Assembly (NCBI GenBank): GCA_012026655.1
Contig: JAAILG010001711.1
Span: 1 to 62,766, forward strand
Reading direction: 5' to 3'
Length of the DNA stretch: 62,766 nt
DNA from: Hydrolagus affinis
Taxonomy: Eukaryota
Both the position numbers and the translations under genes were made by a program. Positions 216 through 55,500 of this stretch are shown here, piece after piece (within the stretch, counting starts at the first letter, position 1; every line of letters begins with the position of its first letter). The notes under the pieces were generated by a model. That model made no database searches. It was not told where the DNA came from and saw only the letters and a list, made by a program, of their open reading frames with translations.

Positions 216-582
216 CCCTCGCCCACAAATGGAATTCATCTATATCTAATTTCCTGATGGTCACCCTTCAGGAAATTAGATATAGTTTCCTTCCAACTCA
301 TGCCCTCCCTCACTTCTTTCCATGTCCATCTCAAGGCCATCTTCCACCTTGGTTTTAGTCACCCCAGCTCAGGTGCCAAACCAGGCCTGGCCAGCCTTTG
401 GGTTGCCCTCCCGATGTGAAATGTACTTGTGTATTATGTTGTATGTATGAAGATCTTGGTTGGGTTATCCCTTAACTTTCTCTGCTGTAAGTGTGTGGAA
501 CCATTCCTCCTGATCTTGTAAGATCTCGACATCCCACTCCTGGATGTTTCAGTATTTGAGTTTGTCGGGTTGTGTCACTTAC

Positions 583-715
583 TCATCCGCATGTAGGACC
601 TTGGGCATGGATTCCACCACTGGGTAGAGACGTTCTGCTGCCTCGTCGTCTCCTTGCAACCAATTGATGGCAACGATAATCATTGAAGCCCACCACTTAG
701 CAACCGGATCTGTGC
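583..715 (-). CDS. SREBF1: SREBF1 exon 15
   Basis: [31 protein letters not shown], read manually; gtaagt donor. Confidence 0.92.
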
Positions 716-3700
716 CTGGGGAGGAGGGGGAGGGAACAGGCAAAGTTAACAGTGTTAAATCACAGCTGCGGTGGGCTGCAGGTATAGCAAGCAGGTGGGG
801 GGTGACTTGTGTTACATGTTCTCAAACTCATCAAGGAACAACAGTGGGGAGGCAGGGGAGGTTGCAAAGAGGAAATCAGTGGGAGCTACATCAGCAGTGA
901 ATTCTGTAACTGGAGGGTGAGTTTCAGTGAGCGAAAAGATATTTAGTGTCTTCAATTACTTTTCTTCTGTGCCTCTGCTCCTGGTCTGCCATCTCCCCTC
1001 CCCGGGCTGTTGTTGCCATGTGCGCCTCCCCCACCCCCCATTTGCCCAAGAGACTGATGCTTATGTGTGAGCCTTGGCAACATTGGCAGTGCCATTAGAA
1101 TATAGAGGGTAGCAGTCGAGCCTGACCTCCTCTCACCCAGCTGCCCCACACATGCACACACACCCTAGAGGGGTTAAGGTATCGCACTGCCTAACCTAAG
1201 GAATGCCTAGGCATTTAGCTTCCCCACAAAGTGCTGGATTCACGCCAGTGATTCTAACTACTGCACCACTGCCATTGCAGCTTAATTTCACACTAAATAG
1301 ATCTGGTTTGACACGAATGTGAAGGAGGGCTTGGTATGAGAGTCGCCATATAGAATGATACTTGGCTGACCTGTGACGGCTGCCACGCTGGAGCCGAGGG
1401 CAAAGGTCTGGGTGGTCACTCGTGCAACGTCAGAGCAGCCGTTCAGCAGCTGCAAATATTCCAGAGCGTCTGAGAATTCCCTGGGAGGGAGAGGGAGAGG
1501 GAGCAAAGTCAGCAGCACTTCACTCTGTCAGAAACCTCACCAAAACTCAAGATGTTTCTTGTAATGTACACACTCTGCATTGTCACAACATACACTCTCA
1601 TAGACATATTATATACTTATATCTGTGAAATGGTATACACTGTATATTACTTGCATACTCTGTAACACTGTAGCTACTGTGGTGTACCATACCCATCCCA
1701 GTGTAAAACTGTTAAGATTCATTACAACAAAAATAAGCTGCATTTAAACAGTCCCTCTCACGCAAGATAGGGTTTGGCATTGCTAGAGTGGTGGAGCAAC
1801 CCTAAGCGGGCGTGGGGGTGATGGACCCGACTGTAAGTACAGTCAAAGAGAAAGGTCTTCTTCAGGCGCGATCTGAAGATAGGGGGGAGGGAAGGAAGGA
1901 GGGGGCAAGGCAGAAGGAATGAGGGAGTGTTCCAGGATTTCGAGGCATAGTGGCTGAAAATGCGGTCACCAATGGTGTGCATGAGGGACTAGTGTGAAAT
2001 GTATATGAATGAGACACTGGAGCTGAATGCCCACCCGCCTTCCCTTGCTGAGCGCTTGCTGCTCTCTGGTTTAACCATGCAGTATAAGGCCTTCTCCAGC
2101 AGATGCTCACGAAACGCCTGTGTCACTTGAGCCAAAGGATCAACTGTTAAAAAACAAAAGAAAATTTCTGTTCAATTTAAAAATAGACCACGTCTTGTGT
2201 CAAAGAGAAAAATGATAATGATAATAATCCATGCCACATATAGGTTTATCACGTCTTCGAGACGTCTCAAAGCGCTTTCACATAATTTACTGAATTGACT
2301 GTACACTTTGTGTGTTAAATGCGGCAGCCAATTGCACGCAGCAGTGTCCCACAAACAGTCTTGAATTGAGTGACCAAATTATTATTATTTGAATTTGAAG
2401 GGATTATTATTCCCCAAAAAGCGATCCGCGAATGGACTGATAACCGGATTCTTACTTACTGCTAGGTAAGCAGAGACGTGTGGAATGTGGAAATTTGCCC
2501 AACGTTTCGTCATGGCTGGGAATTGAACCCAGGTCCTCTGGCTTGTGAGGCGAGTGCTCTAATCACTGAGCTACAGGACTCCTCTAAGTGGTCACTTTCC
2601 GAATTAGCGAATGGCTGAAGAAGCCCTTCCCATGGCTCACCCGTGTTGCCCGCCATGCTGTAGGTGCTGTCTCTGGGGGCGCTCATCACACTCCAGTCTC
2701 CGTCCACAAAGAACCTGTGTCCCAGTGGGTGGCAAAGCCAGTGTAATGTGGGCAGCACGGTGCCGCTGTGAGACAGGCAGATCTGTCTGGTGCTGCTCAG
2801 GAAGAAGCGCTGCGATCGAACAGAGAAATAAATAGGGAGGCAGAGGATGAAACCTGTCTCACAGAACAAGGCAAATTACACGTTCACCCCACCAATTAAC
2901 CAACCCACACCCTCTCACGACCTGCAAACACTTTGGTTAATTTGCTGGATCACAGCAGAGAAACAACAACAACAAAATTACACTTGTATAGCGTCTTTCA
3001 CGTTAGGAGGACGTCCCGAGGTTGGGTGACATGGGAAATGTTATGTTTGACACCTTTCAGGGGCTCCCGTCCACTCCTCTCTGTGGCTTTCACTTTTCCT
3101 TTCTTTTTTGAAATCCTGCTCTCTCCCGCAGGCAAACACCCTACAAAGTGTCAGAACCCCTCGAAGGGTGGGGAACCCTTGGTGCCTCCTTCAAAATGGG
3201 GTCCACAGAGGAAGCCACGCCCCCCCACCCCCCTCCCTCCCACCCCCTACTACAAATGCCCGGGTTTGCTGCACCCGGGACACAAAAGAGTTTTTTTCCT
3301 TTCTGTGAGAGGGTATTTTATGAGATAGGTGTGAAAATAGATTCAATCAATCCTATTCTCTAATTTAAAAAAATTCCTGTTACTTTTAAAACTTATAATT
3401 AGGCTTATTAGGAAGAGAAGCTGCTGTATTATAAATAATAATAATAATCCTTGCATTTGATGTAGCGCTTTTCACATCTTATCGACGTCTCAAAGCACTT
3501 CACAGAATATACTGTAAAGTGAATTGACTGCATATTTGTTGGCGAAACGCAGCAGTCAATTGCGCACAGCAGCGTCCCCAAAAACAGTCATGGATTGTAC
3601 TCACAGTCATGAAGTGGAACCTCCTGTTCAGGCTGGTCTTGATTCGAATTGCAGCTGCCACGTACATCTCGGCCACGGTTGCCACGGAGACGGCCTCACC

Positions 3701-6700
3701 TGCACACTCGGCCAGGTTGACCGAGCTCAGCGCCATGTTAATGGCCGACAGGTGGCTTCCACCCAGCTTGCCTGGGGCACAAGGTTAAATGTAAACTTCC
3801 TCGAGGGATGAAGTTAAAACCTCAGCCAGATTCACTTCCCCACTACCACCCGTCCATCTCTCTGTACCTCCCAACGCCAGCAAAGAGCAGACACAGGAAA
3901 TCGCTGATTAAAAAGGTCACAGCTCTGCAGCACGCTTAAATGCTGTTAACCTGGAACTGCGCAGATTGTAAATGGTGGTGTCTAGAGTGATTGGGAGTGT
4001 GCCACTGATCACCAATGCTCAGTCATAGGGTGGGGCGTGGGTTCAATGGACAGGTTCCAACCCTAGCCTGTTGCAACCGCCCAGACAGCCAGGTCTGAAC
4101 CCGCAGGAGCAAAGAGTCTGGGAGGAAAGCCAAGGGATCTGTGGCCCTCGTTTAAAAAAGTCAATTAGCAGGTATGGATCTGATGGCCTATTTATTGCTT
4201 TGTCATGTAACAGTAATGGGCTGCAGTGTGCAGTGAGGCTAGCCAGCTGTCACAGACAATCCCTTCTCGTTCACTCCTCCCAGCACTGAATGGCTCTGCT
4301 TGTCAAGATGATTCCTTCAGTGAGCAACGGTGACACTAATTCTGTTCAGCGTCTGATCCGCTTTGGTTGCTGCTCGTGCAACGGCAATGCCGCCCATCTG
4401 CTAAACTTTTTCTATTTGGCCTTTGAGCACTCCCTCCCTCTCCTGCTCCTCACCTCCCTCACATCCCCCCCCTCACCCTGCTTCTCTTGCTCACCATTCT
4501 CCTCCCTCCCTCACTCCCTCCTCCTCCCTCCCCACTTCCCTCTCTCTCACTCTCCCTTGCTCACCAGTCAGGTGGAGCTGGTGCAGCTTGTGATAGACCA
4601 GGGCTGCGTCGCGAGCGCTCTTCCTGACATCCTTGGTCAGCTCGCTGTCCCGGCGGAAGCCCCCCGCCCGCGCCGCCAGCCAGCGGCCCACCCACAGCCG
4701 CTGCAGCACATGCCGGACCAGGTTCCACATCAGGCTGCAGGCGAGGTCCAGCTTGGAGGTAGGGAGGGGCCGGCCCAGAGCTTCCAAACAGGTCCAAAGG
4801 TTCTGCGATGCTTGAGCAAAATCACCCTGAAAATAAACCCAAACACAAAAATGTGGGCTGTGTTGTTTTTGCTCTCCCCTCCCCCTGCCACACAACAAAC
4901 TTCACTGGGTAATCACAAGAACCCTGCAGGCTTGACATTTGAGCTGACAATGTGATGTGGAACATAAGGACGGCACAAAGAAGCAGTGGAGCAGAACTAG
5001 CTAGGCAGTAAAACACTGTGCCTGTAACTCTGCATCGCTGTCCCTACAGATCGCAGGGTTATACACGGTTCTGCCGGTTTAGGTACAGGAATTCTCTACT
5101 ACATCTTTCAAAGTAAAAGATCTAAAGCATTCAGTGTTTTAGGAATTCAATAAATTACAGAGATCTGATAATAAACACCACAATTCAGACACTGAATGTT
5201 GTTCATTTTAAACCTCATGAGACTCATCATCAGCTTGAAAAAATATCCTGCCCAGAACCAACATCAATTTCAAGAACCCCTGACTCATTTTCAAATACCT
5301 TCGTATCCTAGCACCGCCCTACTTCTCCAACCTGCTTTCCCCACAACCCACTACCCAATGACTCTGCTCAACTGACACTGGCTTCCTGCATGTCCCTCAT
5401 GCTCTCTGTTCCACCATCAGTGGCCACACATTCAGCCACTGTGCCCCCAAACTCTGGAACATTTTCCTCTATTCTTCCGCCTTGCCCTCTCCTTCTTCAT
5501 CTTCAGATCGTGCTTGAAGACTTTCCTCTTCGATTGTGTTTACGGTCACCTCCCGCTCCCCCGGCTCAGCATCTTGTTTGGCCACTGCCAAGTACTCTGG
5601 GACCTTGTGTGAAGGGCGCTATATAAAAGCAAGCTGTTGTTGTGGATCACCCAGTGGCAGGGATGAGGAGGGAAATGATTCCAGCGCGTCAGTCCAGGGT
5701 AAGGTGATGAATGAAGAAATCCTTACTCTGGCCAAATCCAGATCAGCCTGTTTGCGGTGTCTCCAGAACAGGACTGACGACTCCGAGTGCAGCCGGGTCA
5801 CAGGCTCGCCATAGACAAAGATCTTAATGATTACGCCCAGGACAATGATTCCATTGAGGAGCCAGAGGGTTAGTGTGGGCCAGACCCACGCCAGCCAATC
5901 AGATGTGTTCACTGGGAATAGAAGGATAATGTTAAGAGCTATAATAATAATCCTTGCATTTGATATAGTGCTTTTCACATTTTATCGACGTCTTAAAGCG
6001 CTTCACAGAATATACTGTAAAGTGAATTAATTGTATATTTGTGGGCGAAACGCGGTGCCAATTGCGCACAGCAGTGTCCCACAAACAGTCGTGGATTGAA
6101 ATGACCAATTATTGTGTTTTTTTTGGAGGGATTATTATTAGTAGCCAGTATCCAGTTTGCTGGGCTCAGTGCCAGGTTATTTATCCAATCAACTGCAGAC
6201 CAATTTCACCACCAAAACAGATTGGTGCCAATCAGATACCAGAACTGCATGAGGCAAAGATCTCCGATTAAATCCAATCCTACTCTCTTCATTTCCCCCT
6301 GGCTCAGGTCTAGCGAGTTGGGACGTCCTCCTGACATGAAAGGCTCAGTGTGAATGTCTTTTTGTACTGGATTCTGCAGACTCCTTACCTTCAGCAGAAA
6401 CTTCCAGCATGTTCCTGCCGGCGCCATAGTATGGCCTGCCATCCAGGGAGCCGCTGTTGTCTGACCGGCCAATCAACGATGCCAGTGGGTTGAAGGACAG
6501 GCAGAGGAAGACAAAGGTACAAAGTACCATCCTGGAGCGATCAAGCATGCCAATACTACTAGATGATGCCAACTCTTGTTTGACAAATACCTGAATAGGA
6601 GTGAAAATAGAGTAATAATAATAATCCTTGCATTTAATATAGCACTTTATCACGTCTTCTAGACCAACCTTCTGGTTCTCAACCTTTTTCAGTAATGTAC

Positions 6701-9700
6701 CCCTTGTTATTCTTCAACATTATCATGTAGATCCACCCAACCACATACACACATACACACCCCACTCCTCATTCCACTTGCATTTTACGACCAAGCTTTG
6801 CTTATATAACAAAATAAGTAGCACATACAAAACGAGAGGAATAACAATTAAATATACAATTTGGAAGGCTGTAAAATGCTAATTAAGAGAGCTAAATAAA
6901 TCAATGTACCGCCACAGTTACCCTTGGAAGTAACGGAAAGTACCCCACCGGGGGACATGTACCCCTGGTTGAGAACCGTTGTTTTAGACGCCTCAAAGCG
7001 CTGCCAACAAACAGTCGTGGATTGAGTGACCAAATTATTATTAAAATGAATGTATATCTAAAAAATTCCAGAAAACAGAACCATATGAGAGCACTTTGAG
7101 AGCGCTACCTTGCCATCTTCAAAGTCTGGCTCTGAGTCACTGCTGCTCAGCGAAAAGGGGCTGCTTTGAGGTGAGGAACCAGCATCTGAAGGTGGGGGAG
7201 TCAATACATCGGACTCCAGCTTGAATCCATCCATCTTCCTATCCACACTCATCCCATTGGAAGCTACAATATCTTTCAGAGACTCTGAAACACACAGGCT
7301 TGTTATTACCGTGAGGTAAAACAATGAACACAGCGCAGCATTAGGTTTGAGTACATGTTAGTGTGTGCACACACTACACTAGAAATGCAGAGACTTAAAC
7401 CAGTCTGGAAATTCTCAACAAATCCCAGCTTGAGCAGCTTGCTCTGGGTGTCTCAGATGGACATTCAGACTCACGATTTTTTTGTACCGCCATCCTCAGT
7501 GCTGTGTTCTCTTGTTTCAGCTTCTGGTTGGTTTGTTGCATGAAGCGAATATAATCGACAGCCTTCCTCAGGATCGCTGACTTGTTCAACTAGCAGCACA
7601 CACAGCAAAAGAAAAAAAACAGCACTTTAAATAACCCACTTGCAAATTGGGAGTCTGTAAGTTTCTAACTAAGTTCCTTCCTGAGGAATTTCTTTAGAAT
7701 TGCCATCAACCCACTGGACGTCTGCGCTGAACAGAACAGCTTAAGACCTAATGGGAGTTTCTGGCCTCTGCATGCGTTTGCCTGAGTGCTCAGCTTTCAT
7801 TGGGGAATTTTAAATCAGGTCACGAGGGGAAAGACAATGTGTGATGTGACCAGGAGTGGAGTCCTGAGCACAGAGAGGAAGCAGGACCTGGCAGCAAGAG
7901 GCCAAAGACACCTTGTATTAGTGCATAATATCCTGTGGAAATCAAGCCAGATAGTCAGGAAGGTAGTCGATAACTGGGACTGCACTGAAATCTCCTACAG
8001 TTAAGGAAAATCACTTTCTGGGTGTTGACATGCAATTTAGGCTGAAATTGGTACCTTGGAATCAGTGCCCATAATGAGTTCTTTGAGCTCCACAATCTTG
8101 TCATTGATTGACGACCTGTAGCGCTTCTCGATAGCGTTATGAGCTGTGCGTTTCTCCCCCTTGTTTGGGGTGTTAGAAGGTTTGCCGTTGGATGGCATGC
8201 GATTGATGGGCAGTTTATCCGTGTCCACCATCATTGTTGTCAAAATGGTATTCCCACTGACCAGAGCCTGCAAAAACACAGCGTTAAAAACTTAGGATGT
8301 GAGGAGAATAGTTTTGACACTAAATTCAGCCTGACTTCATTTGTTGGAACATTTGCCTCTGTTTAGGAGTTCAAGTCCATCATGGTGGCATTGAGCTCAC
8401 AGACAAGGAACTCAGAAAGGGCTTTGAGGCAGAAAAAAAGCTCTCAATCTCTTAAAATTTACTCATCACCACAAGAAACCGGGACTCAGTAGCGGCTAAA
8501 GAACAGTTAGGATAATTTAACTGAAGTTGAGTGAAATCTAAGTGAAGGTTTTGGATAGTCATGAAACATAAAAGGTTGATAATATTCACATGTAGCCCAG
8601 GTTGACTGAACCTCAAGAATTAGGAGGCTTAAATCCCCAAAGAGTGAATGGAAGACAATAATCTTGTTTCAACAGTTGGGATGAATTTAATGGGCCGCGG
8701 GTCGCCCGAATATCCGGCAGACGCTTTAACCGGCATTGACCAGGTCCCACGGGTGCCGGATAAACGGGCTTTTATTGTATATATTTTGTGGCTGAAACGG
8801 AACAGCCAATTGCGTGGATTGAAGTGATCAACTGATAATTTTTTTGAGTGAAGGAATTATTACCTGCAGAAAAGTGATCTGCCAGCCGCCTAACAAATGG
8901 GTTCTTACTGCTGGGTAAATAGAGGCGTGTGGAGTAAGGAAACTTGCCCAACATTTTGCCCTGCCCAGGAATCAAACCCAGGTCCCTCACTTGCGAGGCG
9001 AGTGAGCTACAGGACTCTACAATCCCGAAATGCTAATGATTATTATTACAGTATACCCAGTAACTTGGCATCACATACCGGCATCTGCAGCGGGTTGCTG
9101 GTGGTCAGAGAGGAGAGAGTAGGTGTCTTTACCGCTGTTACCATTGTGGTTCCGTCAGGCTTCAATGCTGTGAGCAGCAGCGAGTCAGCCTTAATGAACT
9201 GAGGCTGAAAGAGGACCTGCAGGAACACACAGGCAGAAGTGTCACAACTTTGTATTTCCACTCAGTCCTATGGCAGCTGCCCTCCTTTGTCTTTTCTGAA
9301 CTCTTCTGAGGATCAGAGATTGGATCCTAGGATCCTAGATTGCATGAGAATAAGCAAGAGAAACTGGAACCTTGTAACCACTTTAACACAGGAACAAAAC
9401 CAAATTACATTTGTTTGGCGCTTTTCACATCGGGAGGACATCGCAAGGCGCTGGCTTCAATATGTTGGTCACGCACGGGTTGTTATTCATTGAACATTTT
9501 AGAGGTTAATTTGGATTCAACAACAACAACAACAAAATTACACTTGTATAGCGTTTTTCACGTCAGGAGGACATCCCAAGGCTCTGGACAGTTAGTTACT
9601 GCTTCAGACCCGAGCTGAGGACGGTTGGGGGGGGGTGGGGGGGGGAGGGGCAGAGGGAAAGGGGAAATTAGGTGTTGCCGATGGGGCCATCGAAGAGGAG

Positions 9701-12700
9701 AGTATTAAGACGAGACTTGAAGGGTTCAGTACATATCTGAAAATACTGTAAAAACCTGAGCTGGAGTTGATTCTAACCCCCAGTGCAGGTTTTAACCATT
9801 TGACTGTCCAGCATTGGGATATTCTCCTAACGTTAAGGGCGCTATATAAATGCAACTTGTTGTTGGTATAAGAATTCCACTCTGCAGTCCAACAGGTGAT
9901 TGACAGCCAGCTTTGGATTTCACACCTGAAATCCCGTTTATTTCACTGATTTTCAACCTAGGTGTCTGAGCTTCTTACACAATATTCCTTTTCAGGTTTT
10001 TCAGTAATAGACAAAAAATAAACTGTGGTCTTTCCCCCAAGGCCGGGCAATGGGCCAGTGTGACCTGAAGCCAACCCTCTGGCTCCCTATCTGCAGCTGA
10101 ACATTGCACCTCGAAAACCACTAACTCCATATTACAACAAGAGTGATGGGATGTCAGCCTGTGAATCTCGCAGGAATAGGAGTAACACCTTGAGCCTGGC
10201 TGATTCATGACTGATGTGTAGCTCAAATTCAATTACTCACCTATGCCACATACCCCTCGATACCCTTACGTAACAAATATCTATCCACCCCAATCTTAAA
10301 AAATTGAATGGATCCAGCATCCACAGCCTTTTGAAACTCAACTAATTATTATTATTATCACTGAGGTGAATCTGATTGAGCTCAGTTCTGCCTTCCCGAG
10401 CGGCGGAATGACTTACCGGGACCTGATGGATCTGTGCTGAAACAGTGGGAGTTGTGCAGGTTGGTGCAGGGGCCAGGAGCTGCTGTGTGGGCTGGGTCTG
10501 GGTCTGAACCATCATGGCCTGCATCTGCTGAGGAACCACCAGGTCCTGGAGTTGCTGTGGCACCATCTCCTGCTGTAACACTGAACAGAGTAAAGCCCAA
10601 TGTCAGTTCAACTCCACCTTACTTACACTGACTGAATGGGAAAGTGCTTTGGTGAAAATTTGAATCATAAAATCCTCAAGGTCTAGGGGTTTGTCAGTCC
10701 TCTCATTCCCACATGCCCCAGGAGGAGAGATAACTACGTCCTTTGCTGCTATGGTTGTCCTTCCTACACTATTGAATACACACTCACTAACTGTTTCAGC
10801 GTCTTGCCCTCACCCTAACCTGTGTTGTTTCCTCCAGTTCTTCAGCCACTCTTCTCCTGCTCTTTGGAACTCCCTCCCCATAATCCCCAACCCAATTTTG
10901 TTTTACACCAGCTGCAGAACTCTTCCTACCCATGTCTCACGTTTGTTCATAACTCTGATCCACCCTCACAGAACTGGACACCATGTGCTATTGAATACTC
11001 TAGGAATATGGCATGTCCTGATTAGCGAAATGGCAATCCTAAACCGCATTACTGCACATCTCACCTTGGCCCTTTGCATTTCTTGTTTAAATCTCGTTGA
11101 GGAAAAATAGCACAAATTGGCCATTCACCCGTTTGGATAATCGCTCTCCTGGTCACCATGGTGCATTTTAGATAGTTTGGGGAAATTATGTGGGACAGAG
11201 AAGCGCACAGGTCCATATGAAATGGTAGCAAAGTTTTTTATTTAAATGGACACCATTTGGCATTTGTCGATGTATAACACATTAAGGTGCTCATTGTTAA
11301 CAACAACAACAAGATTACACTTGTATAGCGCCTTTCACGTCAGGAAAACAAATAATCTGTTGTAATTAAACTAGCACGAATGTGTGTGTGACCTTCAAAT
11401 TCATTCATCCTCTTGCTCCACCCTAAATCTATAATCTCCTCCACCTCCAGTCTCCTGTCCACATCCTCCACTGCTCCAACTCAAATCTAATATTCATTCC
11501 TCATCCCTCCTCTGTTGCACCAATTAGTGTCTGAGTTCTCTGCTCCGTGGAACTTTCTAGATCTTTCTCAAAATCCTTTCACCTTGCCACTCCCTCTGAC
11601 TCGCTTTCTCTCTCCTCTTCTTCCCACCTTCCAAACCCTAAATAACATGTTTGTAACTTCCTCAGCACCTCTCACCCTCTCCAACCCACCCCCACCCCAT
11701 GACAACCATGACACATGTTGTTTCTCTAAAGCACGGCCAGAATGTTGCTGCATATGTGCGTGTTATCGAACGATGAAGGTTTACCTGTAAATGTATTGGT
11801 GTTCTGGTAATTCATCAACGGTTGCTGCTGAGTAAACTGTGGCTGTGGCGAGACTGTAAAGCTGGGAGACATCATGATAGCCTTTTGTGTGCCTAGTTGC
11901 ATAGGGCTCCCTTCCTGCTTGACCTGCTGTGAGGGAAACTGTAGGGGCTGTGGCAAGAGCTGTTGATGTTGCTGCTGGTGAGGAGATGGCTGGAACATTT
12001 TCACAGAGGTTGGCGACTTGTTACCGCTCCCCAAGATGCTGTCCAGGGACAAATTCATTGAGCTTTGGTTAGACAGGGAAGCTGAACTGCTGTCCTGCAG
12101 TGGGGTGCTTGCACCAAAAGGACTATCAAACAAACCAGGGAACTCGCCATCCTGGTTGTTAATCAGCTGCAGCATATCTGTAAAGCAAGCAAAATTCTGA
12201 ATTACAGCCACTCACACATACACATACAAGGTATCAAATACAAGGTAGCACATTGAAGGGATGCGTAGAATCTTATAGCATAGAAGGAGGCTATTTGGCC
12301 CATTGTTTCATCCACACATACACAGTCAATTCACTTTACAGTATATTCTGTGAAGCGCTTTGAGACGTCGATAAGATGTGAAAAGTGCTATATCAAATGC
12401 AAGTACAGTAAAAGCCCGTTTATCTGGCAGCCTCGGAACCTGGCCAATGCTGGGTAAAGCGCCTGCCGGATATTCGGCTGAAAATACAAATAAATAAAAA
12501 TTAAAAATGCATTTTTCTGGATAAATTCCGGTTAATCGAATGTAGACTTTTTTTTTGTGATGCTGGTTATACGGAAGTTACAGTTGATCAGGTCACGGAT
12601 GAATGGACTTTCACTGTATTATTATTATCATGCCTGTTCTGGTTCTTTGAGAGAGCTATTCAATTAGTCACTCTCCCCCAATCTTTCTCCATAGGCTTGC

Positions 12701-15700
12701 AAATAGTTTATTTTCAAGTATCTATCCAATTTGGGTTATAACCCAATCCAGAAGATCAAAACTCAACTACTTTATGATTATGAACACAAATACACTCCCA
12801 CCCCACCCAATTGCTGTCAATAGAATAACTGGTCACAACTGTAGTGGTAAGGGTGTGATGCAGAGTACCAAGTTAGACTTTTATTCTGTAGTTAGGCAGC
12901 CCTGTTCTTTCCATGTAAAATATATAGTTTGAAATCTATTAAGTCAAGCTTGGATCGTCTACAAATGTACACTTGCATGTACGCCTACATAAACTTACTA
13001 ACTTGGTTATAAGTAAAATTGTTTATTTATTTATCTTCAAATCTCTAGGTTTTGAGTGCATCTTCGCAAAGGCAAAAACACCTGCTGGTTCCTTCACAAT
13101 TCCATCATCATTTAGTAATAATCCTTGCATTTGATATAGCGCCTCTTCATGTCTTCGAGACGTCTCAAAACGTTTCACACAATGTACTGTAAAGTGAATC
13201 GACTGTACATTTTGTAGACGAAATGAACATTTGCTGCAAAAATGAAAACTTATGTTTTCATTGCCCAACAGTACATTGGAAAAGAAAAATAGAAAGAGAT
13301 GTTCCGTTTGCCTCTACGCCTCGCCCACTATGTTACAATGATTATACCATGTGCGCTCCGAGGAGCAATGATAAGGATTATTGTTGACTCTAAAATTCAT
13401 TGTTGTACAGTTTCGATAACTGAACCCAAGCCAGTGTGATACAAATGTGCAGGATTTCGGTAGTACTCTACATGATTTTATGATGCAATTTAATTCAGAG
13501 ATTTTAATTTAATTATTTTGGGATTGATGCGTGTTCGTTTTTCGAACAATTAAATTTCTTTAAATGTTTGTGGGAGACGTCTGTGCGCCATTAGCTGCCG
13601 TGTTTTCCCCACAAAGTTTCGAGGAAGTGCTTTGAGACGTCTCAGCAATGTGATCAGGTCCTACATCAAATGCAAGAATTATTATTAATTATAGAATTAT
13701 TATTATAGTATAAATACTGACAACTTTAGCCCCTGTCTGGAAAAGAGCAGGGAGATGCTAAAAATACATAACTCCTCGCAAAGCTATCAGAGGATTAAAA
13801 TAAATGACAACGATCTCCCACTTGTCTAAAGCAGACAAAAAAGTACTGTGCGGAAAGTTTTCTTTTAAACGAAGTCTACAGTACTCTAAATTTGTGATTA
13901 AAATGTTGCAGCTATTACTACACAACAAATCTCTATCTAGCTGAAGTTAAGGATACATCAATGTTTACTGTAGTAAACAGAAATCTGCCACTGACCCGAA
14001 ATACTTTATTCACCAACAAATAATACAGTTGCTACATTTTACAGCAAACCCTGTGAAGCTCTACGAGACATCCTCATGACTTGAAAGGCATTATAAGAAA
14101 GACATGATTTATTACATCAGGTGATCCCTTTTAGTTATGGCTTATATAGTAACAATTTTATTTTACCCACAAAATACATTTGATTCACTTTACGGTACAT
14201 CCTATGAAGCTCTTTTGAGACATCAACGACGTGATAAGGCACTATATCAAATGCAAAGATTATTATTATTAGTTAATACAGTATTTACTTAATCATAACC
14301 GACTAAACATAAAAGGCACAAATATTCCTTTAATGCAAATGCATCGCTTGCATTAAAATAAAAGTTACATTTCCATCTAGAATTGAGCCAAGTTAGTTTA
14401 TAGTTAGAAATCACAGCAACCCGAGGTCAAAAAAAAAGTTGCATGTAAATAATTTTTTGTCCTCAGAGCATGCAAAGTTATGCTGAAAGGGAGAAATAAA
14501 ATAAAACTTTTTTTAGCAAAGCAAATCATTTTAAATACCTATCGCCCAGCCTTCTTGTAAAAACATACTGTTCTATTAAGGAGGTTACTACAGGTCATTC
14601 TTGCAAAGCTTTTCAGTTAAATCATTACCTTCAAACGTGCAGTCCATGATTTCTGTGTGAACTTCACACAAGACTTACACGAATTTAGCCACAGCTAAAT
14701 TTTCGACGATGCACTTTTTACAGCATGTGCTAAACCTTACTAGCCTGCGAGAAGAAGGCTGCTCTGGTTTTCTTCTCTCCTCTGCTTAACTCCCCACCCC
14801 CCCATGTGGAAAAAAAATCCACTGACTGTATTCAAATCGAGGGGCGGATTTTTGAATCATTTTTTTTCCTCCATGAGGTGATCCAGTTCAGCCAATCGCT
14901 AGAGCTCCCAGTCCCTCGCTATGTTGTCCTCCCCCCACTCAGACACGACAGAAAGGATTTGTTTGACAGTCTGCACTTCCAGGGCACTGATTAATTCAGA
15001 AAGGTGAATAACCAGAGGTTACTCCAGGGCGTTTGCAGCAAATCCACCCACTTACAGGCACATCGCAATCCTTTACAAGCTTTACATGTCAGCGGTCGCC
15101 ACATTTTATTCAAATTGAAAAGCACCACAATCTCACGGCATCAACCAAATCCCTTTGGAGAGGGAAAAGAATAATCTGTCTTTACTATTTAAGATGAGAC
15201 ATTCAAAATCATTTAAAAAGACTCAGAAACAAACACCAAATCCTTTTTTTAAAAAAAAGTAGAGCTCTCTATTTTCTTTTTTTTAAAAAAAACAAGGTAT
15301 ATAAAAGCAATGTTTGCCTCTCGCTTCATACAGCAAAACGATATCTCCCGCAACACTGTAAATGTCTAAAAGTAGCTGGGCGTGTATATGAACTTGAGAT
15401 TCCACTTTGCAGGAGGAGGCAATAACCGACAGTAACCCTGGTGTGTCGTCAGAGCTTGAAAGGACTAACTATAACACAACTCAGCAGCAACTGTGGACAT
15501 GCAATACGGCATTGTGCCAAACACCAGGCAAACACTCCACACTTTCAGCAAATAGATATTTGCAAACATTCAGAAAACCTTGCATGTTTGTATATCTACT
15601 TGGACACCTTGTTCGATTCATCCCCAAAGTGTAACTTGTAATATACTATATTTTCGAAAATATAGTCAATTCACTTTAGTCTATTCTGTGAAGCGTTTTG

Positions 15701-17009
15701 AGGTGCCTCAAAAACGTGTTAAGGTTCTATATCAAATGTGAGGATCATTATATAAAGTAATTACTTAATTATTTAAATAACGTGCTTCTCAATCTTTTGA
15801 AAATCATATATTAATATGAATGAAAAACTTATTTCAGAATGAATGAATGAAAGATGAGCCACATTATACTAAGAAGTACAGTATTGACAAACCAGTGGCA
15901 CAACAACGTATAAATATAATCGTAGTTTATTACACAACAAATCCCATAACTTGATTGATTATACAATTTCCAAGCAAACAAACAATAAGTATAAATATTA
16001 GAAGCTAATAAAAAGTAGCCGCCAATGTAGCTTTGGAGCATAACATCCATTATGTTTGCAAATCTGTTCTCTATCTAGCATGTGCGCTCCAAACGATGCC
16101 CATGCAGTCTCCGTTGCTCAATAATAATATTAATTCTTGCATTTGATATATTTTCACTTCTTCTAGACGTCTCAAAGCGCTTCACAGAATATACTGTAAA
16201 GTGAATTGACTGTATATATTTGTGGAAGAAACGCAGCAGCCAATTGCGCACAGCAGCGTCCCCACAAACAGTCCTGGATTGAAAATGAGCAATTTATTGT
16301 TGCTTTTTGGGGGATGGATTATTAAATGGGGAAGATGCATTTCACTCAGAAATAAAAGGTAAGGCAATTCATTATCATTCGTGGATTTATTCAGATTTCT
16401 GGATGTGAGGGGGGAGCTCTCCTGCGTTTCCCCCATCAAGGGAGAGAGCGCGCGCACTCCATTTCCAATAAACCTGTCGGGAATTTCTAAATGTGTCGGT
16501 GGGATTCATGGAATTCACACTCTGGTCAGGCGAATCTTCAAGCATGGTGATGGGTTTCCACATGTGTCAGCTGAAAAAACTGCCAATGGCTGCCAATAAC
16601 CAAGCTGCCAATACTAAAGACAGTCAATGACCAGGCAGTCACTGCCAACCTTGCCAATGCCAACCCTACCAATGCCAACCCTACCAATGCCAACCTTGCC
16701 AATGCCAACCCGGCCAATGCCAACCCTGCCAGTGCCAACCCTGCCAATGCTATCCCTTGCCAATGACCAGACCATCAATGCCATTCCTGCCAATGCCAAC
16801 TATGCTAACGACCAGACCCTCAACTCTCAATGCCACTCCTGCCAATGACCAGACCGTCAAGGCCATGCCTTGCCAATGCCCATCAACTCACCATCGATGT
16901 CGCTGAGCAACGCGCTATCGATCTCGCCGCTGTCGGTCAGTGACGGGTCCAATTGGTCCAGGGACGAGTCATCGTCGAAGCCGCTGGCGGTCGGAGCGGC
17001 GTTATTCAT
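583..17009 (-). CDS. SREBF1: Sterol regulatory element-binding protein 1, isoform 1a; exons 1-15, 3' end beyond the window start
   Basis: 15 GT-AG exons with consistent phases (about 884 codons). Acidic N-terminus, bHLH-Zip with the SREBP-diagnostic Tyr ([10 protein letters not shown]), TPPPS degron, DRSR/NP site-2 motifs, RNML site-1 motif and two TM helices. Synteny with TOM1L2 supports SREBF1 over SREBF2. Confidence 0.96.
1371..1480 (-). CDS. SREBF1: SREBF1 exon 14
   Basis: [17 protein letters not shown]. Confidence 0.92.
2035..2143 (-). CDS. SREBF1: SREBF1 exon 13
   Basis: [20 protein letters not shown], read manually; ttaacag acceptor, gtgggc donor. Confidence 0.9.
2212..2582 (-). mobile_element. 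tRNA-derived SINE, long variant with an extra central domain
   Basis: Same head and tail plus an internal segment shared with copies at about 8780-9020, 43045-43220, 44400-44700, 48225-48630 and 49590-49940. Confidence 0.8.
2641..2809 (-). CDS. SREBF1: SREBF1 exon 12
   Basis: RFFLSS...[16 protein letters not shown]. Confidence 0.93.
3605..3771 (-). CDS. SREBF1: SREBF1 exon 11
   Basis: [25 protein letters not shown]...; canonical splice sites. Confidence 0.93.
4565..4826 (-). CDS. SREBF1: SREBF1 exon 10
   Basis: GDFAQA...[16 protein letters not shown]...[15 protein letters not shown]. Confidence 0.94.
5727..5911 (-). CDS. SREBF1: SREBF1 exon 9 (TM2)
   Basis: [10 protein letters not shown]...VYGEPV...[14 protein letters not shown]. 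Confidence 0.94.
6389..6590 (-). CDS. SREBF1: SREBF1 exon 8 (TM1, S2P and S1P sites)
   Basis: [23 protein letters not shown]...GRNML. Confidence 0.94.
6665..6981. mobile_element. hAT (Charlie-like) MITE
   Basis: GGTTCTCAACC / GGTTGAGAACC termini, 8-bp TSD TTCTAGAC/TTTTAGAC, interrupts a SINE. Confidence 0.75.
7109..7284 (-). CDS. SREBF1: SREBF1 exon 7 ([10 protein letters not shown] phosphodegron)
   Basis: Conserved TPPPSD motif; phases fit. Confidence 0.92.
7475..7589 (-). CDS. SREBF1: SREBF1 exon 6, helix 2 and leucine zipper
   Basis: [28 protein letters not shown]; ctag acceptor, gtgagt donor. Confidence 0.95.
8055..8267 (-). CDS. SREBF1: SREBF1 exon 5, basic region and helix 1
   Basis: [27 protein letters not shown]. 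Confidence 0.96.
9079..9216 (-). CDS. SREBF1: SREBF1 exon 4 ([16 protein letters not shown]...)
   Basis: Conserved [10 protein letters not shown]; canonical splice sites. Confidence 0.93.
10417..10580 (-). CDS. SREBF1: SREBF1 exon 3 (Gln/Pro-rich, ...QIHQVP)
   Basis: ttcag acceptor, gtaagt donor, phase 1 to 0. Confidence 0.88.
11785..12177 (-). CDS. SREBF1: SREBF1 exon 2 ([18 protein letters not shown]...)
   Basis: tttacag acceptor, gtaaac donor, conserved [10 protein letters not shown]. Confidence 0.93.
12406..12616. mobile_element. Tigger/pogo-like MITE, short copy
   Basis: CAGTAAAAGCCCGTTTATC... TIR, TA on both flanks; ends shared with 59289-60108. Confidence 0.8.
14582..14597 (+). promoter_or_regulatory. 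DR4 / LXR response element AGGTTActacAGGTCA
   Basis: Near-perfect DR4 about 30 nt inside the intron after exon 1c. Confidence 0.6.
14629..14647 (-). CDS. SREBF1: SREBF1 alternative first exon 1c coding part (MDCTFE)
   Basis: Minus strand reads aatcATG GAC TGC ACG TTT GAA G|gtaatg. Matches the mammalian SREBP-1c N-terminus as I recall it; phase 1 fits exon 2 (G|AT ATG CTG = D M L). Confidence 0.85.
14841..14896 (-). promoter_or_regulatory. SREBP-1c promoter module: inverted CCAAT (14892-14896), SRE-like ATCACCTCAT (14873-14882), GC box (14841-14847)
   Basis: Motifs read directly about 200-250 bp upstream of the MDCTFE ATG, in the NF-Y > SRE > Sp1 order known from the mammalian 1c promoter. 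Confidence 0.65.
15016..15031 (+). promoter_or_regulatory. DR4 / LXRE-like AGGTTActccAGGGCG
   Basis: Upstream of the 1c SRE module; resembles the proximal rodent 1c LXRE as I recall it. Confidence 0.5.
15423..15438 (-). promoter_or_regulatory. DR4 / LXRE-like GGGTTActgtCGGTTA
   Basis: Plus strand TAACCGACAGTAACCC; DR4 spacing, about 780 bp upstream of the 1c ATG. Confidence 0.45.
16580..16885. repeat. Minisatellite of TGCCAA-based units (about 15-bp period CCAATGCCAACCYTR)
   Basis: Directly visible tandem repeats; explains the spurious PTLPM / LAGLA / GIGRV ORFs. Confidence 0.9.
16892..17009 (-). CDS. SREBF1: SREBF1 exon 1a ([16 protein letters not shown]...ALLSDID)
   Basis: ATG at 17009, GTGAGT donor, phase 1; acidic transactivation segment in a CpG-rich region. 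Confidence 0.9.
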
Positions 17010-17119
17010 GGCCTGATAAAAGTCGACACACACACACACAGAGTGAACAACACCAGGGCCGCCCGCTGACGGCGGGAGCAACAAACTTTTATCACAGGGA
17101 CAAACACCAACCAACTCCC

Positions 17120-17530
17120 TGAATGTGTTTACGCCGAACTGTCGGCCCGGCGCCTGCCCGCCCCGCCTGCCCGCCTTCACCAACCGTCAATCAAGGGCGC
17201 CCGATACCTAACTCGCTAGCGGAAATGGCGGCTCCCGATGATTGGCGGCCAGTACCGACCAATGGGAAGCGGGAAATGGTGGGCGTCGCCGGACTAGTAG
17301 CCAATTAGCGACGGGGACGGCTCAGGTTTGGTTGAGAGGGCGGGCGGTCGGCACGCGTGCGGCTGGAACCAGCGCGGGCGACCAATCAGCGCGCGGGCTC
17401 CGGCGTGGGGTGATCGGTCGTCATGGTTCCAACCTCGGCCATTACATCATGTGGTTAGCAGGCAGCCCAGCACACCATTCAGCCAGGAGGGCGGGCGCAG
17501 TTTTGTTTCTCCCCTCCCGCCCACCCCATG
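17120..17530 (-). promoter_or_regulatory. SREBF1 1a CpG-island promoter with multiple CCAAT boxes, GC boxes and a perfect SRE-1 (ATCACCCCAC, 17405-17414)
   Basis: CpG-rich; CCAAT/ATTGG near 17241, 17260, 17301 and 17382; GTGGGGTGAT on the plus strand. Confidence 0.7.
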
Positions 17531-49503: not shown

Positions 49504-52500
49504 GTAAGATTTATGACTATTTTGGTAACCTTTTAACATTCCGAACATCACTTTATTTCTGATACATCCAGATTTTGTAAAGTAACATTCATAATAATCC
49601 TTGAATTTGATATAGCGTCTTATCAGGTCTTTGAGATGTGTCAAAGCACTTCACAGTATATATTGTGAAGTGAATTGACTGGATATTTCGTGGTCAAACT
49701 ATACTCAGCCAATTGTACTCAGCAGTATCTCATAGGCAATCGTGGATTGAGTGACAACATTTTTTTTCTTTTATTACCTCCAGCAAAGTGATCCGCCAAT
49801 CAACTAACAATTGGGTTCTTACTCAATGCTACTTAAACATGGAGTAAGGAAACTTGCCTAACGTTTCACCTTGCCTGGGAATCGAAACCAGGTCCTCTTG
49901 CTTGCGAGGCGAGGCATCTAACAACCAAGCTGCGGGATTCCGTTCAGCATTTCAATCATCTCTGTTCTGATTTTGTTCCAGGAAAGTTGGCATTTAAATA
50001 TTAACGTAGAAGTACTAATATTGTGTATGATTTCAGATATCCTGAAGATTGATAACCTATGGCAGTTTAAAACCCTAACGAAACTCCAGATGGACAATAA
50101 TATCATTGAAAAAATTGAGGGACTAGAGACACTTACCAATCTGGTGTGGCTTGGTAAGTATTGACGTATTGGAATGATGAATGTTTCCAGTAATAATAAT
50201 AATAATCCTTGCTTTTGATATAGCGCTTTTCACATCTTATCAACGTCTCAAAGCGCTTCACAGAATAGACTGTAAAGTGAATTGACTGTATATTTGTGGG
50301 CGAAACACAGCATCCAATTGCGCACAATAGTGTCCCACAAACAGTCGTGGATTGCAATGACCAATTTTATTATTGTGTGTTTTTGGGGGACAGATTATTA
50401 TTAGGCATGTGGAGTAAGGAAACTTGCCCAAGGTTTCATCCTGATCTGCCTGGATTCAAACACAGGTCTTTGCGCTTGTAAGGCTCTAGCCACTGAGCTA
50501 TAGGAGGACCAAGGAAGTCCAATGGAGCTGTCTATTTTCTAATCTTGTTTTTCCCTGCTCTTTCCGCTTTGTCTTTTACATATATTTCCTCTCTAACACA
50601 CTCACTGTCCCCGGCACCATGTGTGGGCCGGTGACTTTATAAGCTACTAAACCTATAATTTATTTAATAACACATAATAATAATCCTTGCTTTTGATATA
50701 CAGCCCAATGTATAGTTTAGGTTTAGGTTGATGAATTTATCTGTGTTCGAGTGTTTGGATTGACAAAGAAAGAATCTTACAAACACACCCTAAATTTGGA
50801 TTGAGTTATTTGTTCAGTTTGGTTTTGTCTGAGGGTGTCTACGATTTGCTGAAATACCAATCCAGCCTGTATTCCATCAAATGTGAATGATGCCTACCAG
50901 AAATACACTGTATAAATGCAATGTTGTTGTTTTCTAGATTTATCCTTCAATAACATTGAAATTATTGAAGGACTAGATGGACTGGTTAATCTGGAAGATC
51001 TGACCTTATACAACAACAGAATTTCTCTCATTGAAAACATGGATTCGCTAGCCAATCTGCAAATATTTTCTATTGGCAATAACCATCTCAGCCAGTTGGA
51101 AAATGTAAGTTTTTCAATTCAATGCCTTCTCTTCTAATCTCTCTAGATATATGTTTCTCATTGCAGTGGTTGTTTTGTATGGCACAGGTCATAACACCAT
51201 TCTGCTTTTGGCACAATTTACACAGATACTCTACTTGCGAAAGTTTCAGCACCTGCGCACGTTAAACCTGGCCAGGAATTCATTGTGTGAAGATGAACGC
51301 TATAAAACCTACATTGCTGCTTACCTCCCAAAGCTGGTGTACCTGGACTTCAGGTTGATCGATAAGAATGTTGTAAGTGTTCCAATGTACTGTATTGGTC
51401 CGTATGTAAAAACGTTATTTTTAAAAGATGCTGTCGCCCATAGCATCGCCTGGCCCCCTCATTCCCCATCGTCACGTCTTGCCCGGAGACCATCCTCTTT
51501 GACCATGCTTACCACTCCCTTGGACTCGGCATCAATGAGCGCTCTGAGACACTCTCCTGAACGAGGGGCACTACATAAAATGCGAGTTGTTGTTTGTGAT
51601 TGCTTAGATAGTTTGCAGTTTTTTGATAGTTTTTTGATAGTTTGCGTGTTTGATTTTGCCTGTGTGCAAATGTAAGCACACCTCTATCTTCTCAGGGATG
51701 GGCAATAAGCCAGAGTTAGCCAGAGCTCAAAATGAGAAAAACAAGAAGAACGATAATGCTTTTATTCAGATTGGCCCATTGCCACAGTGAGTCTGAGTGA
51801 CATTGCACTGTGTGGTCAAGTAGTGGATGGCAACTACGTGGTGAGGATCCTCGACTGACGGGATATTCTGCGAGTCGAATGAGTTGCCATGCAGAGGCTG
51901 GACACAGAAGATTGGGATAGAAGGGAGACTGGAAACAGCATTGCAATACAGTGTAACGCAAAGGGTAGAGAAAATCTGGAAGTGCCTCCTCCAAAAGGCA
52001 GTGAATGCTGGATCCTTTCAAATTTTCAGATTGAGGTATTTGTTAGGTCAGGGTATCAAGGGACATGGGGCAAACGCAGGTATTTGGAGTCGAGGTACAG
52101 ATCAGCCATAGAATGGCTCAAGGGGCTGAATGGCCCACTCCTGTTCTATGTATATGTGTATGTACATATATATATATAAAACCAGTCTGTCATTGGTTAG
52201 CCAGTTACCTGTGACATTGGCAAAGCGCTGGAAGCAAACTGTGTGAGACCTCTGTACCAAGCATGGTTCAGATACTATCAGGAAAGTGGAAAGGAAGAAA
52301 ATGTTTTCCTTTTAAACAGCTGAAGAATGTTTTTCTGTTAAAGCGGGATATAGGTTTGCATACGTATATCTATTCTATTGAAGAATTGATCCAAAATGAG
52401 AAAGCACAGTTTACAAGGCTCGAAGAAACAAGGCTTAAGCAGGAAGAGTTGGCTTTACACAAGGTACAATAACCAACTGATTTCTTATTTCAGAAATTAA

Positions 52501-55500
52501 AAAGTACAATATTCAATCAAATATTCACTACATATATGTTTGTAAAGTGGCCAGTCCATGGTAAGGATTCCTTGTTTTTAAAACTAAAAACACATGTAGT
52601 TGATTTAATGTGGAGTCCGGTAGCTCAGTGGTTAGAACACTCGTCTCGCAAGCGAGAGGACGTGCACTCAATTCCTGGTAACGTTTGGCAGGTTTCCTTA
52701 CTCCACAGACACACCTCTGCTTGCTATTCCAGGGGTAATAATCTGTTACGAAAATAATAATAATCTGGTCACTTAATCCATGACTGTTTGTGGGACACTT
52801 GTGCACAATTGGCTACCACTTTCAGCCACAAGGATACAGTCAATTCACTTTACAGTATATTCTGTGAAGCGCTTTGAGATGTCTCAATGACATGCTATGG
52901 TGCTAAGGATATCAAATGCAAGGATTCTTATTATTATAGCTGAGATCAGCTAACAAAGCAGACAGCATTGATCAGAACCATTGCACTGAACTATCGGTAG
53001 TGATTTGTTTTACTAACATCTGGGTTTCCCTTAGGCTGCCTATGTGGAGTACCTCAATGGATCCAATCTCTTCGACAGCATGTTCGCAGAAGACGTTGAA
53101 GCAGAAAAGCTTGGACATCTCCCTGGATTGGCTGAATTCGTAGAGACATATCCTTTTATAAACAAATATATGCTAAATATGCTTTGAATTGGTTGCAGTC
53201 CTAGTAATTAAGCAACTCGCTAGATTGGAATGAATGGAAGACTTCTTCTGAAGTCTTAACTTTTCAACCACCGTTCCCTGACCATTCCAACTCCACCACA
53301 TTGCCTGCCTCCGTCCATATGTCACAACCGATGCAGCTGAAACCTGTTCACGTCTTCGTCACTTTCCGGCTGAACAATTCCAACGCTTTCCTCGCTGGTC
53401 TCCCCGGTTCTACGATACACAAAACTCCGTACCCCCATCACACAAGTCCTTGCCAGGCTCCATTGGCTCCCAATCAGCAAACGGATTGATTTGAAGATCT
53501 TGTTACTCGTTTTTAAACCTCTTAGCCTTGCACCTCCCTATCTATCCAACCTGCTTACCCCCACCATCTGTTGCTTCGGCCCCACCTGGCTCCAGCCTCC
53601 TTTTTGGCTGTGCGTTCATCTTTGTTTACCAATGTTTCCCTTTTGAAGCTAATAATGAAGGTGCTCACAGGTTGCGTTGAGAAAACATCAGTCTAAAAAT
53701 GTCATGGGGAAAACCCATCATCGGGAACCAGCTCAGTTGTCCTTGACCACATTGTCACGTACAAGGCTGAATTTACTGAGATTTGTATAAAGATCTTTCA
53801 CTACGGGCTCCGCGGTTATGATACCCGGGAAAAAGAGGTCAAACAGTTCCTTGAATGTTTTCAAGAAGCCATCGAGGACAACCAGAACGTCGGGGTGGAA
53901 ATCCTAAAGGAGTTTGAGGAAAAGAGCAAAGAGGTAGGATGCAGATATGTTTAAGGGAATCATTGTTCTCAAGAGTTTGCTGGATATGGTTTATAATAAT
54001 AATAATCCTTGCATTTGATATAGCGCTTTTCACATCTTCTAGATGTCTCAAAGCGCTTCACAGAATATGAACTGGAATGTTCTGATGCGGAGTGCAGTAC
54101 ATCTATATACAGAGATATTTGCTGACCGCTATTTTCCTCTTGCAGTTTACAAATGTACAGCAGCATGTAGCTGATAGCAGTGTTCTCGAAATTCACATGG
54201 AAAATTTTAAGTTAGACCTGAAAAAGTTGTGGAACACACTCATGAACCTGGAGATGCAACTGGTTGACCAGCTAGAGGTAAGACACATTGAGATGATGAT
54301 GTTCAACCAGGAAGATTTGCCACAGGTTTAATGGTGGAACAGGCTCAAGGGGCCAAATGGCCTACTTCTCCTATAGTAAATAGATCCCGATCCTGCCAAC
54401 ATAAATCTCCCAATGATACAAACATTTTAAAGCCATATTGACTTGTCTGCTCCCTCCGTTCAGTGGGCTGCAGCCTGCTCCGCAACCCTAGCCCAATCCA
54501 TCCACCACCATTAACAACAAAATGACACTTGTATAGTGCCTTTCACGTCAGGAGGACGTCCCAAGACGCTGGACAGTCATTGACAGTCAAGCTCTCTGAG
54601 ATGCCGTCCGGCGTGGAGGGCGCTATATAAATCGAAGTTGTTGTTGTTTCAGATCCAAGCTGGGGACAGGGAGGATGGAGGGAAAGAGGGGGATTTGGAG
54701 TGACCGATGGGACTGTCAAAGTGGAAGGTCTTGAGGTGAGACTTGAAGGAGGCCAGGGAGGGGGCGAGGTGGAGGGATTGCATCATGGAGTTCCAGAAGT
54801 TGAGGGTACAATTGGCTGAAGGCTCACCCACCAACGGGTGGGTGGGTCGGGAGATGTGAAGCAGGCCGGAGCCTGCTGAGTGGAGGGGGTAGGCAGGTTG
54901 GTAGGGGGTTAGAAGGTTGCAGAGGTAGGGTGGGGCGAAGCCATGGAGGGCTTTGAAGGTCAATGTAATTTGTTGAAAGAGCCAGTGACTGCAGATATCA
55001 TTCTGTAGGAACTATTATTATTATGTAACTTTTTTCTGTTTTGTTCTGTAGGAAACTCTCAAAGATTTTGAACGAAATATTTCAGAAATGGTTTCAACTT
55101 ACATTGAAAATGTACAGGCTCTATATCCTTTGTGATAATAATAATAATAATCCTTGTATTTGATATGGCATCCTATCACGTCTTCGAGACAATACAAAGC
55201 GCCAAGTGAACCGTAGTGCACTAAAGTTATCAACTCCTTAATCATAACACAATAGCTCAGTGCCGAGATCTGGAGAATCATTATCACGAGAACGTTTTGG
55301 AAATCGCCGTGAGCACATTTGAAAAAATGGTCAAGAATGAAGTGGAGGAGGAAATGCCGGAAGAATTGAGAACAGTAAGTTAGGGAGAGAAGCCATGTTA
55401 ACTGCTAGCTTCACATTTACAGTTGCAGATTTTGTATTGCCCTAATTGGGTCTCTGTGTGGCATTCTTAGAAAATAATATAATACTAATCCTTGCATTTG

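Follow-up and report, generated by a model that had tools for sequence, protein, structure and literature searches.

The 1a and 1c forms of SREBP-1 are defined by alternative start sites, and 1a carries the longer acidic segment (PMC6275055, excerpt). The locus described here raises the question of whether a chimaera SREBF1 gene also holds a 1c-type first exon within its first intron, and, if so, how that exon is controlled and how old the arrangement is. The window, i.e., the whole 62,766-nt stretch of DNA that was analysed, carries SREBF1 on its minus strand. In our reading, a 19-nt segment in intron 1 is very probably the alternative first exon 1c of chimaera SREBF1, joined in frame to exon 2 and likely transcribed from its own intronic promoter. 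Its product would be a short-headed SREBP-1c, for which we predict weaker activation and, as in mammals, regulation through LXR, SREBP, NF-Y, and Sp1. The features are listed in Table 1.

Table 1. SREBF1 exons and candidate control elements in the window
Feature	Position	Strand	Remarks
Exon 1c, coding part (MDCTFE and first base of Asp)	14629..14647	(-)	donor GTAATG; sequence; RNA reads clipped at 14629
Exon 1c 5' UTR, minimum extent	14648..14791	(-)	clipped reads to 14712; one unclipped read to 14791
Exon 1a, coding part	16892..17009	(-)	118 nt, phase 1, donor GTGAGT, 39 residues
Exon 2, common to 1a and 1c	11786..12177	(-)	3' end approximate
Other SREBF1 exons (bHLH-zip, membrane part, start of regulatory domain)	582..10584	(-)	
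Candidate LXRE (DR4), intronic	14582..14597	(+)	AGGTTA CTAC AGGTCA; ~30 nt past the 1c donor
Candidate proximal module	14841..14896	(-)	inverted CCAAT, SRE-like, GC box
Inverted CCAAT, candidate site	14896-14892	(-)	
SRE-like candidate site	14881-14873	(-)	TCACCTCAT
GC box, candidate site	14847-14841	(-)	
Candidate LXRE (DR4), proximal	15016..15031	(+)	AGGTTA CTCC AGGGCG; 12/15 vs human SREBF1c primer
Candidate LXRE (DR4), distal	15423..15438	(-)	GGGTTA CTGT CGGTTA; 14/16 vs mouse Srebf1c primer

The SREBF1 gene and its host

A tblastn search with Callorhinchus milii SREBP1 as the query places 15 exon hits between 17009 and 582, with 845 of 975 residues identical (87%), and the gene exceeds the contig start. 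Identity falls to 68-69% for three sharks and rays and to 62% for human. The gene is SREBF1 and not SREBF2, since all 11 exon 2 hits are named SREBP1 and the tree agrees. That tree, a quick one with 25 rows, pairs the window with C. milii as its sister (SH-aLRT 100). This position, together with the 87% identity, identifies the host as a holocephalan other than C. milii, and the cartilaginous-fish host on which the earlier note had made its argument conditional is confirmed. Exon 1a is part of a CpG island, with an observed/expected ratio of 1.11 across 16850-17450, and its product agrees with the N-terminal end of C. milii isoform X1. The first base of exon 2, 12177, is preceded by ...TTTACAG.

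A 1c-type first exon in intron 1

The minus strand from 14647 to 14629 reads ATGGACTGCACGTTTGAAG, followed by GTAATG. Its ATG is located ~2,245 nt inside the 4.7-kb intron 1 in a favourable Kozak context, with A at -3 and G at +4. The codons ATG GAC TGC ACG TTT GAA are followed by a single G before the donor, and the frame agrees with that of exon 2: the next codon, Asp, is composed of this G, which either first exon supplies, and the AT of exon 2. An in-frame TAA at 14677, 10 codons upstream, makes this ATG the earliest start in its frame. The segment lies between exons 1a and 2, has a phase that fits exon 2, and qualifies as a short alternative first coding exon. Its N-terminal hexapeptide matches mammalian 1c. 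The head that it encodes has 6 residues, 2 of them acidic, versus 39 residues with 10 acidic ones in the 1a head, so the acidic segment is the shorter one, as expected of a 1c form.

The match is not of a kind that arises readily by chance. The expected number of exact hexapeptides followed by G and a GT donor in a 4.7-kb intron is 1.2e-7, and exon 1c is the single instance in intron 1 of an ATG followed by 15 nucleotides, G, and GT. A degenerate 21-nt pattern of the exon has one match in the 1.11-Gb genome, at exon 1c, and its reversed control has none. The micro-exon described in the earlier note, with its Kozak context, donor, and phase 1, is borne out by the sequence and by this single genome match, and its identification as the SREBP-1c first exon holds on hexapeptide, position, and orthology. 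Eight metagenome loci also match the exon pattern. They lie inside long open frames (253-1007 codons), contain no LXRE core, and have no blastn match to the window, and were rejected as chance.

Probable donor use in the RNA of a close relative

The RNA comes from three poly(A) runs (X2, X3, and X4) of one sample from a close relative of the host, of which ~27-30% of each run was read. This sample and the window differ at two of five exon 2 places listed. Exon 2 has a depth of ~10-20 in the three runs, and exon 1a is also covered. Over 14429-15178 there are six reads in the gene orientation, three from X2 and three from X4, with none from X3. In X4, the depth drops from 2.0 across 14629-14653 to 0 across 14604-14628. 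Two of the three X4 reads are partly aligned, and one of these continues with at least 20 unlike letters. The X4 bin depths resolve into 41+84+100 bases, i.e., two donor-clipped reads (41+60 and 84+17) plus a whole read at 14692-14791. The two clipped reads are on the gene strand, have different starts, and reach upstream to 14669 and 14712. The donor at 14629 is apparently used in the RNA of this relative, and the reads are clipped there as splicing predicts. As for the junction from 14629 to 12177 that the earlier note had named as a check, its donor half is seen in two reads clipped exactly at 14629, and its partner would be the acceptor at 12177, a join that the RefSeq models of relatives imply.

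The same reads bear on whether the segment could be an internal cassette exon, spliced in between exons 1a and 2 through the AG at 14654-14653 with the frame kept. This AG stands five bases before the ATG in frame with the phase-1 exon 1a, and several mammalian models have the hexapeptide internally, behind the 1a head. However, both clipped reads pass the AG, which indicates that exon 1a is not spliced in there. In addition, the pyrimidine tract is poor, and no chondrichthyan model among the matches listed has the hexapeptide behind a 1a head. We consider a cassette exon very unlikely. In sixteen mammalian models, the 1a head is followed by ~30 extra residues and then the 1c hexapeptide; in the chimaera, the stop at 14677 and the 2.2 kb of intron exclude this arrangement.

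Exon 1c is minor relative to the exon 2 depth in this sample. The very small number of reads, with none in run X3, could be taken to mean that the exon goes unused in this lineage, as a vestige or a chance match. This seems extremely improbable to us given the chance expectation above, the reads clipped at the donor, and a hexapeptide that is identical in C. milii and mammals whereas exon 3 is down to 79% identity with C. milii.

Where its transcripts begin is less sharply marked. No start-site pile-up is seen among the six reads over 14429-15178, and the proposed promoter is itself covered by two unclipped reads from X2 (about 14826-14926 and about 14980-15086). The start may therefore be located further upstream, or these reads may be unspliced 1a transcripts. 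Five repeat-free intron bins have a depth of 0 in the gene orientation in all three runs. Read joints and loose ends over 11700-17300 yielded repeat artefacts only, the SINE copies of intron 1 swamping the signal. None of the 11 listed differences between X1 and the window falls in exon 1c or in the six motifs, a count that is uninformative at 1-2% divergence over 88 bases. On the minus strand, upstream ATGs with short open reading frames precede the 1c start at 14726, 14805, 14860, and 14874; the one at 14726 (Met-Leu-stop) is within the read-covered region and, judging from its sequence, could damp translation.

Candidate elements of a 1c promoter

The mammalian 1c promoter contains two LXREs plus NF-Y, E-box, SRE, and Sp1 sites (PMC3107472 and PMC6113258, excerpts). 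Our references for the LXREs are human and mouse ChIP primers (PMC13022077 and PMC13617935, excerpts), which have the core RGGTTACT in common. Three DR4-like candidates surround exon 1c. The one at 14582 is the sole mismatch-free DR4 in the window, where 0.79 are expected with the general DR4 consensus, so for this site only its position is notable; it also matches the human primer at 12 of 15 positions, and matches this good number 4 in the window against 1.0 expected. The mouse element has a second 14/16 match at 9092, inside a coding exon, which indicates that matches like that of the distal candidate can arise by chance. The core itself is not enriched across the window (6 versus 3.5 expected), and three of the six copies are those at 14582, 15016, and 15431 (binomial p ~1e-4, for a zone drawn post hoc). 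Two cores lie in the kilobase upstream of exon 1c, a number equalled in 3 of 3000 shuffles, and 0 of 400 shuffles of this kilobase came within 3 mismatches of the mouse element.

Closer to the exon, at -249, -234, and -200 relative to the ATG, the candidate CCAAT, SRE-like, and GC box sites follow one another as published for mammals. With a pattern defined after the site had been seen, the window contains one such module, and 2 of 3000 shuffles do. No E-box is found between the CCAAT and SRE-like sites, the E-box being displaced, and no TATA match is found within 600 nt of the 1c ATG.

Taken with the mammalian promoter, the candidate LXRE, NF-Y, SRE, and Sp1 sites of the chimaera are arranged in the same published order. 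The spacing, in contrast, is wider: the upstream candidate LXREs are 376 and 791 nt from the ATG, and the mouse LXREs are at -184/-168 and -234/-218, counted from the start site. When the primer labels are taken as gene-relative, the distal DR4 seems to be inverted relative to the mouse. Unlike mammals, the chimaera lacks an E-box within the module and has a third candidate LXRE, in the intron downstream.

Based on these motifs, the candidate sites are probably functional controls of 1c. Alternatively, the exon may be a true 1c first exon with regulation unlike that of mammals, the LXRE-, SRE-, and NF-Y-like sites being chance occurrences or parts of an intronic enhancer of 1a. Single motifs are common in the window, the module pattern was defined with hindsight, two X2 reads span the module, and the spacing and orientation depart from the mouse, all of which would fit such an account. 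Three DR4-like sites that surround a 19-nt exon in a span of 860 nt, and a CCAAT-SRE-GC order equal to the published mammalian one, do not, and we regard it as unlikely.

In the mammalian-type control that we favour, a second, TATA-less start in intron 1 would most likely produce an mRNA encoding the 6-residue head in place of the acidic one of 39 residues. The SREBP body common to both forms would be escorted by SCAP and cleaved by S1P and S2P as in any SREBP (PMC6275055, excerpt). By analogy with mammals, LXR/RXR at the candidate DR4 sites would confer induction by sterol ligands, and SREBP together with NF-Y and Sp1 at the candidate module would provide positive feedback. The same analogy predicts a dedicated promoter and start site bound by these factors, induction by nutrients and insulin, predominance in the liver, and weaker transactivation by the product than by 1a.

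Distribution of the 1c start and prior annotation

Exon 1c is present in the nearest relative. The C. milii entries XP_007903954.1, XP_042196941.1, A0A4W3IAM8, and V9KB35 have an identical MDCTFE start and the same exon 2, and a 1a-type isoform, XP_007903953.1, is annotated as well. The V9K series of UniProt is presumably derived from transcript sequencing. These entries are labelled 'isoform X2' or similar, never 1c, and do not mention a promoter. Mammalian SREBP-1c (primate, bat, camel, and rodent models) starts with the same hexapeptide; as in the chimaera, the exon sits between exons 1a and 2 and the acidic head is short.

Our protein set comprises 302 proteins, all from jawed vertebrates (the best 120 of 1190 matches listed, with 30 clusters expanded). 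Among the matches listed, 61 of the 302 begin with M[DE][CS][TIL][FLY][EK] followed by exon 2 sequence, and the 1c-type start occurs in 39 non-mammalian species, counting a Heterodontus model that begins MAMDCTFE. These include 16 of 22 chondrichthyan species (Heterodontus again included). The ray-finned fishes with a 1c start among the matches listed are two bichirs, paddlefish, sterlet, spotted gar, European eel, and Indo-Pacific tarpon; the lobe-finned lineage contributes the coelacanth, seven amphibians, four reptiles, four birds, and many mammals. Variants of the hexapeptide (MECTFE, MDCTLE, and MESTFE) are conservative. With 120 of 1190 matches listed, a species without a 1c model may still carry the exon. 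The database isoforms are mostly automated predictions.

The exon is thus common to holocephalan, elasmobranch, ray-finned, and lobe-finned lineages, which places the two-start design in the last common ancestor of jawed vertebrates. Models across these groups agree with the proposal of the earlier note that the 1a/1c system predates the split between bony and cartilaginous fishes. At the level of annotation, protein models among the matches listed also provide the MDCTFE-type starts sought in sharks, gar, coelacanth, amphibians, and teleosts, in the last group for some species. The description of the exon as hidden does not hold, as the C. milii RefSeq and UniProt models and those of 38 further non-mammalian species among the matches listed begin with a 1c-type hexapeptide. 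The 1c protein form is already publicly annotated in the nearest relative and in most groups of jawed vertebrates, and the surprise is limited accordingly.

A literature search, mainly of freely accessible papers, returned no account of a cartilaginous-fish 1c or of the origin of 1c. The available excerpts of PMC3305589, PMC6724022, PMC2478640, PMC2878982, and PMC5027541 contain nothing on non-mammalian 1c. A non-mammalian 1c is probably in print already. Work in chicken reportedly distinguishes 1a and 1c. An explicit dating of 1c may be unreported, as may the candidate conserved control module and the loss in teleosts.

Teleosts

In zebrafish there is seemingly one srebf1 transcript, 'unlike higher vertebrates' (PMC3820260, excerpt), and the one form characterised so far in fish is 1a-like (PMC5220380, excerpt). 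The teleost srebf1 genes of zebrafish, rainbow trout, Japanese seabass, and large yellow croaker are orthologous to the chimaera gene and have a 1a-type head, with a single 1a-like form reported. Among the matches listed, 1c starts are found in 2 of 14 teleost species, in an eel protein named 'srebp1-like' and in the Indo-Pacific tarpon. These two proteins form one paralogue clade (SH-aLRT 100), separate from the other eel copy and from bonefish, arapaima, milkfish, and herrings (SH-aLRT 86), in a quick tree with a long eel branch that draws on annotation and on five clupeocephalan species with two clusters expanded. This pattern hints that 1c was kept in just one srebf1 duplicate after the teleost genome duplication.

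A tentative scenario can be drawn from these data. The LXR-SREBP-1c feed-forward switch, i.e., the exon with its LXRE, NF-Y, SRE, and Sp1 module, might have been invented in early jawed vertebrates and be intact in chimaeras; most teleosts might have lost 1c, with the exon surviving in one duplicate that is retained in eels and tarpons and gone from the herring and zebrafish lineage. With a 1c start ancestral to jawed vertebrates, any absence in teleosts is a loss, and a loss in most teleosts, if true, would explain why fish papers find just a 1a-like form. The ancestral 1c start corrects the framing in the fish-lipid field in which two SREBP-1 forms belong to 'higher vertebrates' and one to fish. 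Our impression is that many fish studies label their transcript 'SREBP-1c', and the data suggest that this label should be checked species by species. Cartilaginous fishes keep large lipid stores in the liver, which makes them a natural test of the first role of 1c.

Neighbouring genes and repeats

Upstream of SREBF1, the window contains a TOM1-family VHS gene at ~23000-47700 (-), an LRR gene at 49900-56100 (+), and an ATP12 gene at 58000-62030 (-). We take these to be TOM1L2, DRC3, and ATPAF2, in which case the neighbourhood presumably corresponds to the human gene order SREBF1-TOM1L2-DRC3-ATPAF2. A second SREBP gene elsewhere in the genome (C111472:79-300), with a bHLH exon that is 67% identical, is probably SREBF2.

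An Rfam search of the window, where SREBF1 is truncated by the contig start, found only tRNA-like heads of SINE repeats, at 2508, 33989, 43046, and 44636. It found no miR-33, which in a truncated gene does not amount to an absence. Intron 1 contains copies of a very abundant, transcribed SINE-type repeat at 12260-12630, 13010-13380, 13570-13760, 14130-14320, 15630-15810, and 16000-16400. The interval 14320-15600, with exon 1c and the motifs, is free of such copies. A tandem repeat of degenerate 15-nt units (GGTTGGCATTGGCAA-like) occupies 16630-16880, directly following the donor of exon 1a.
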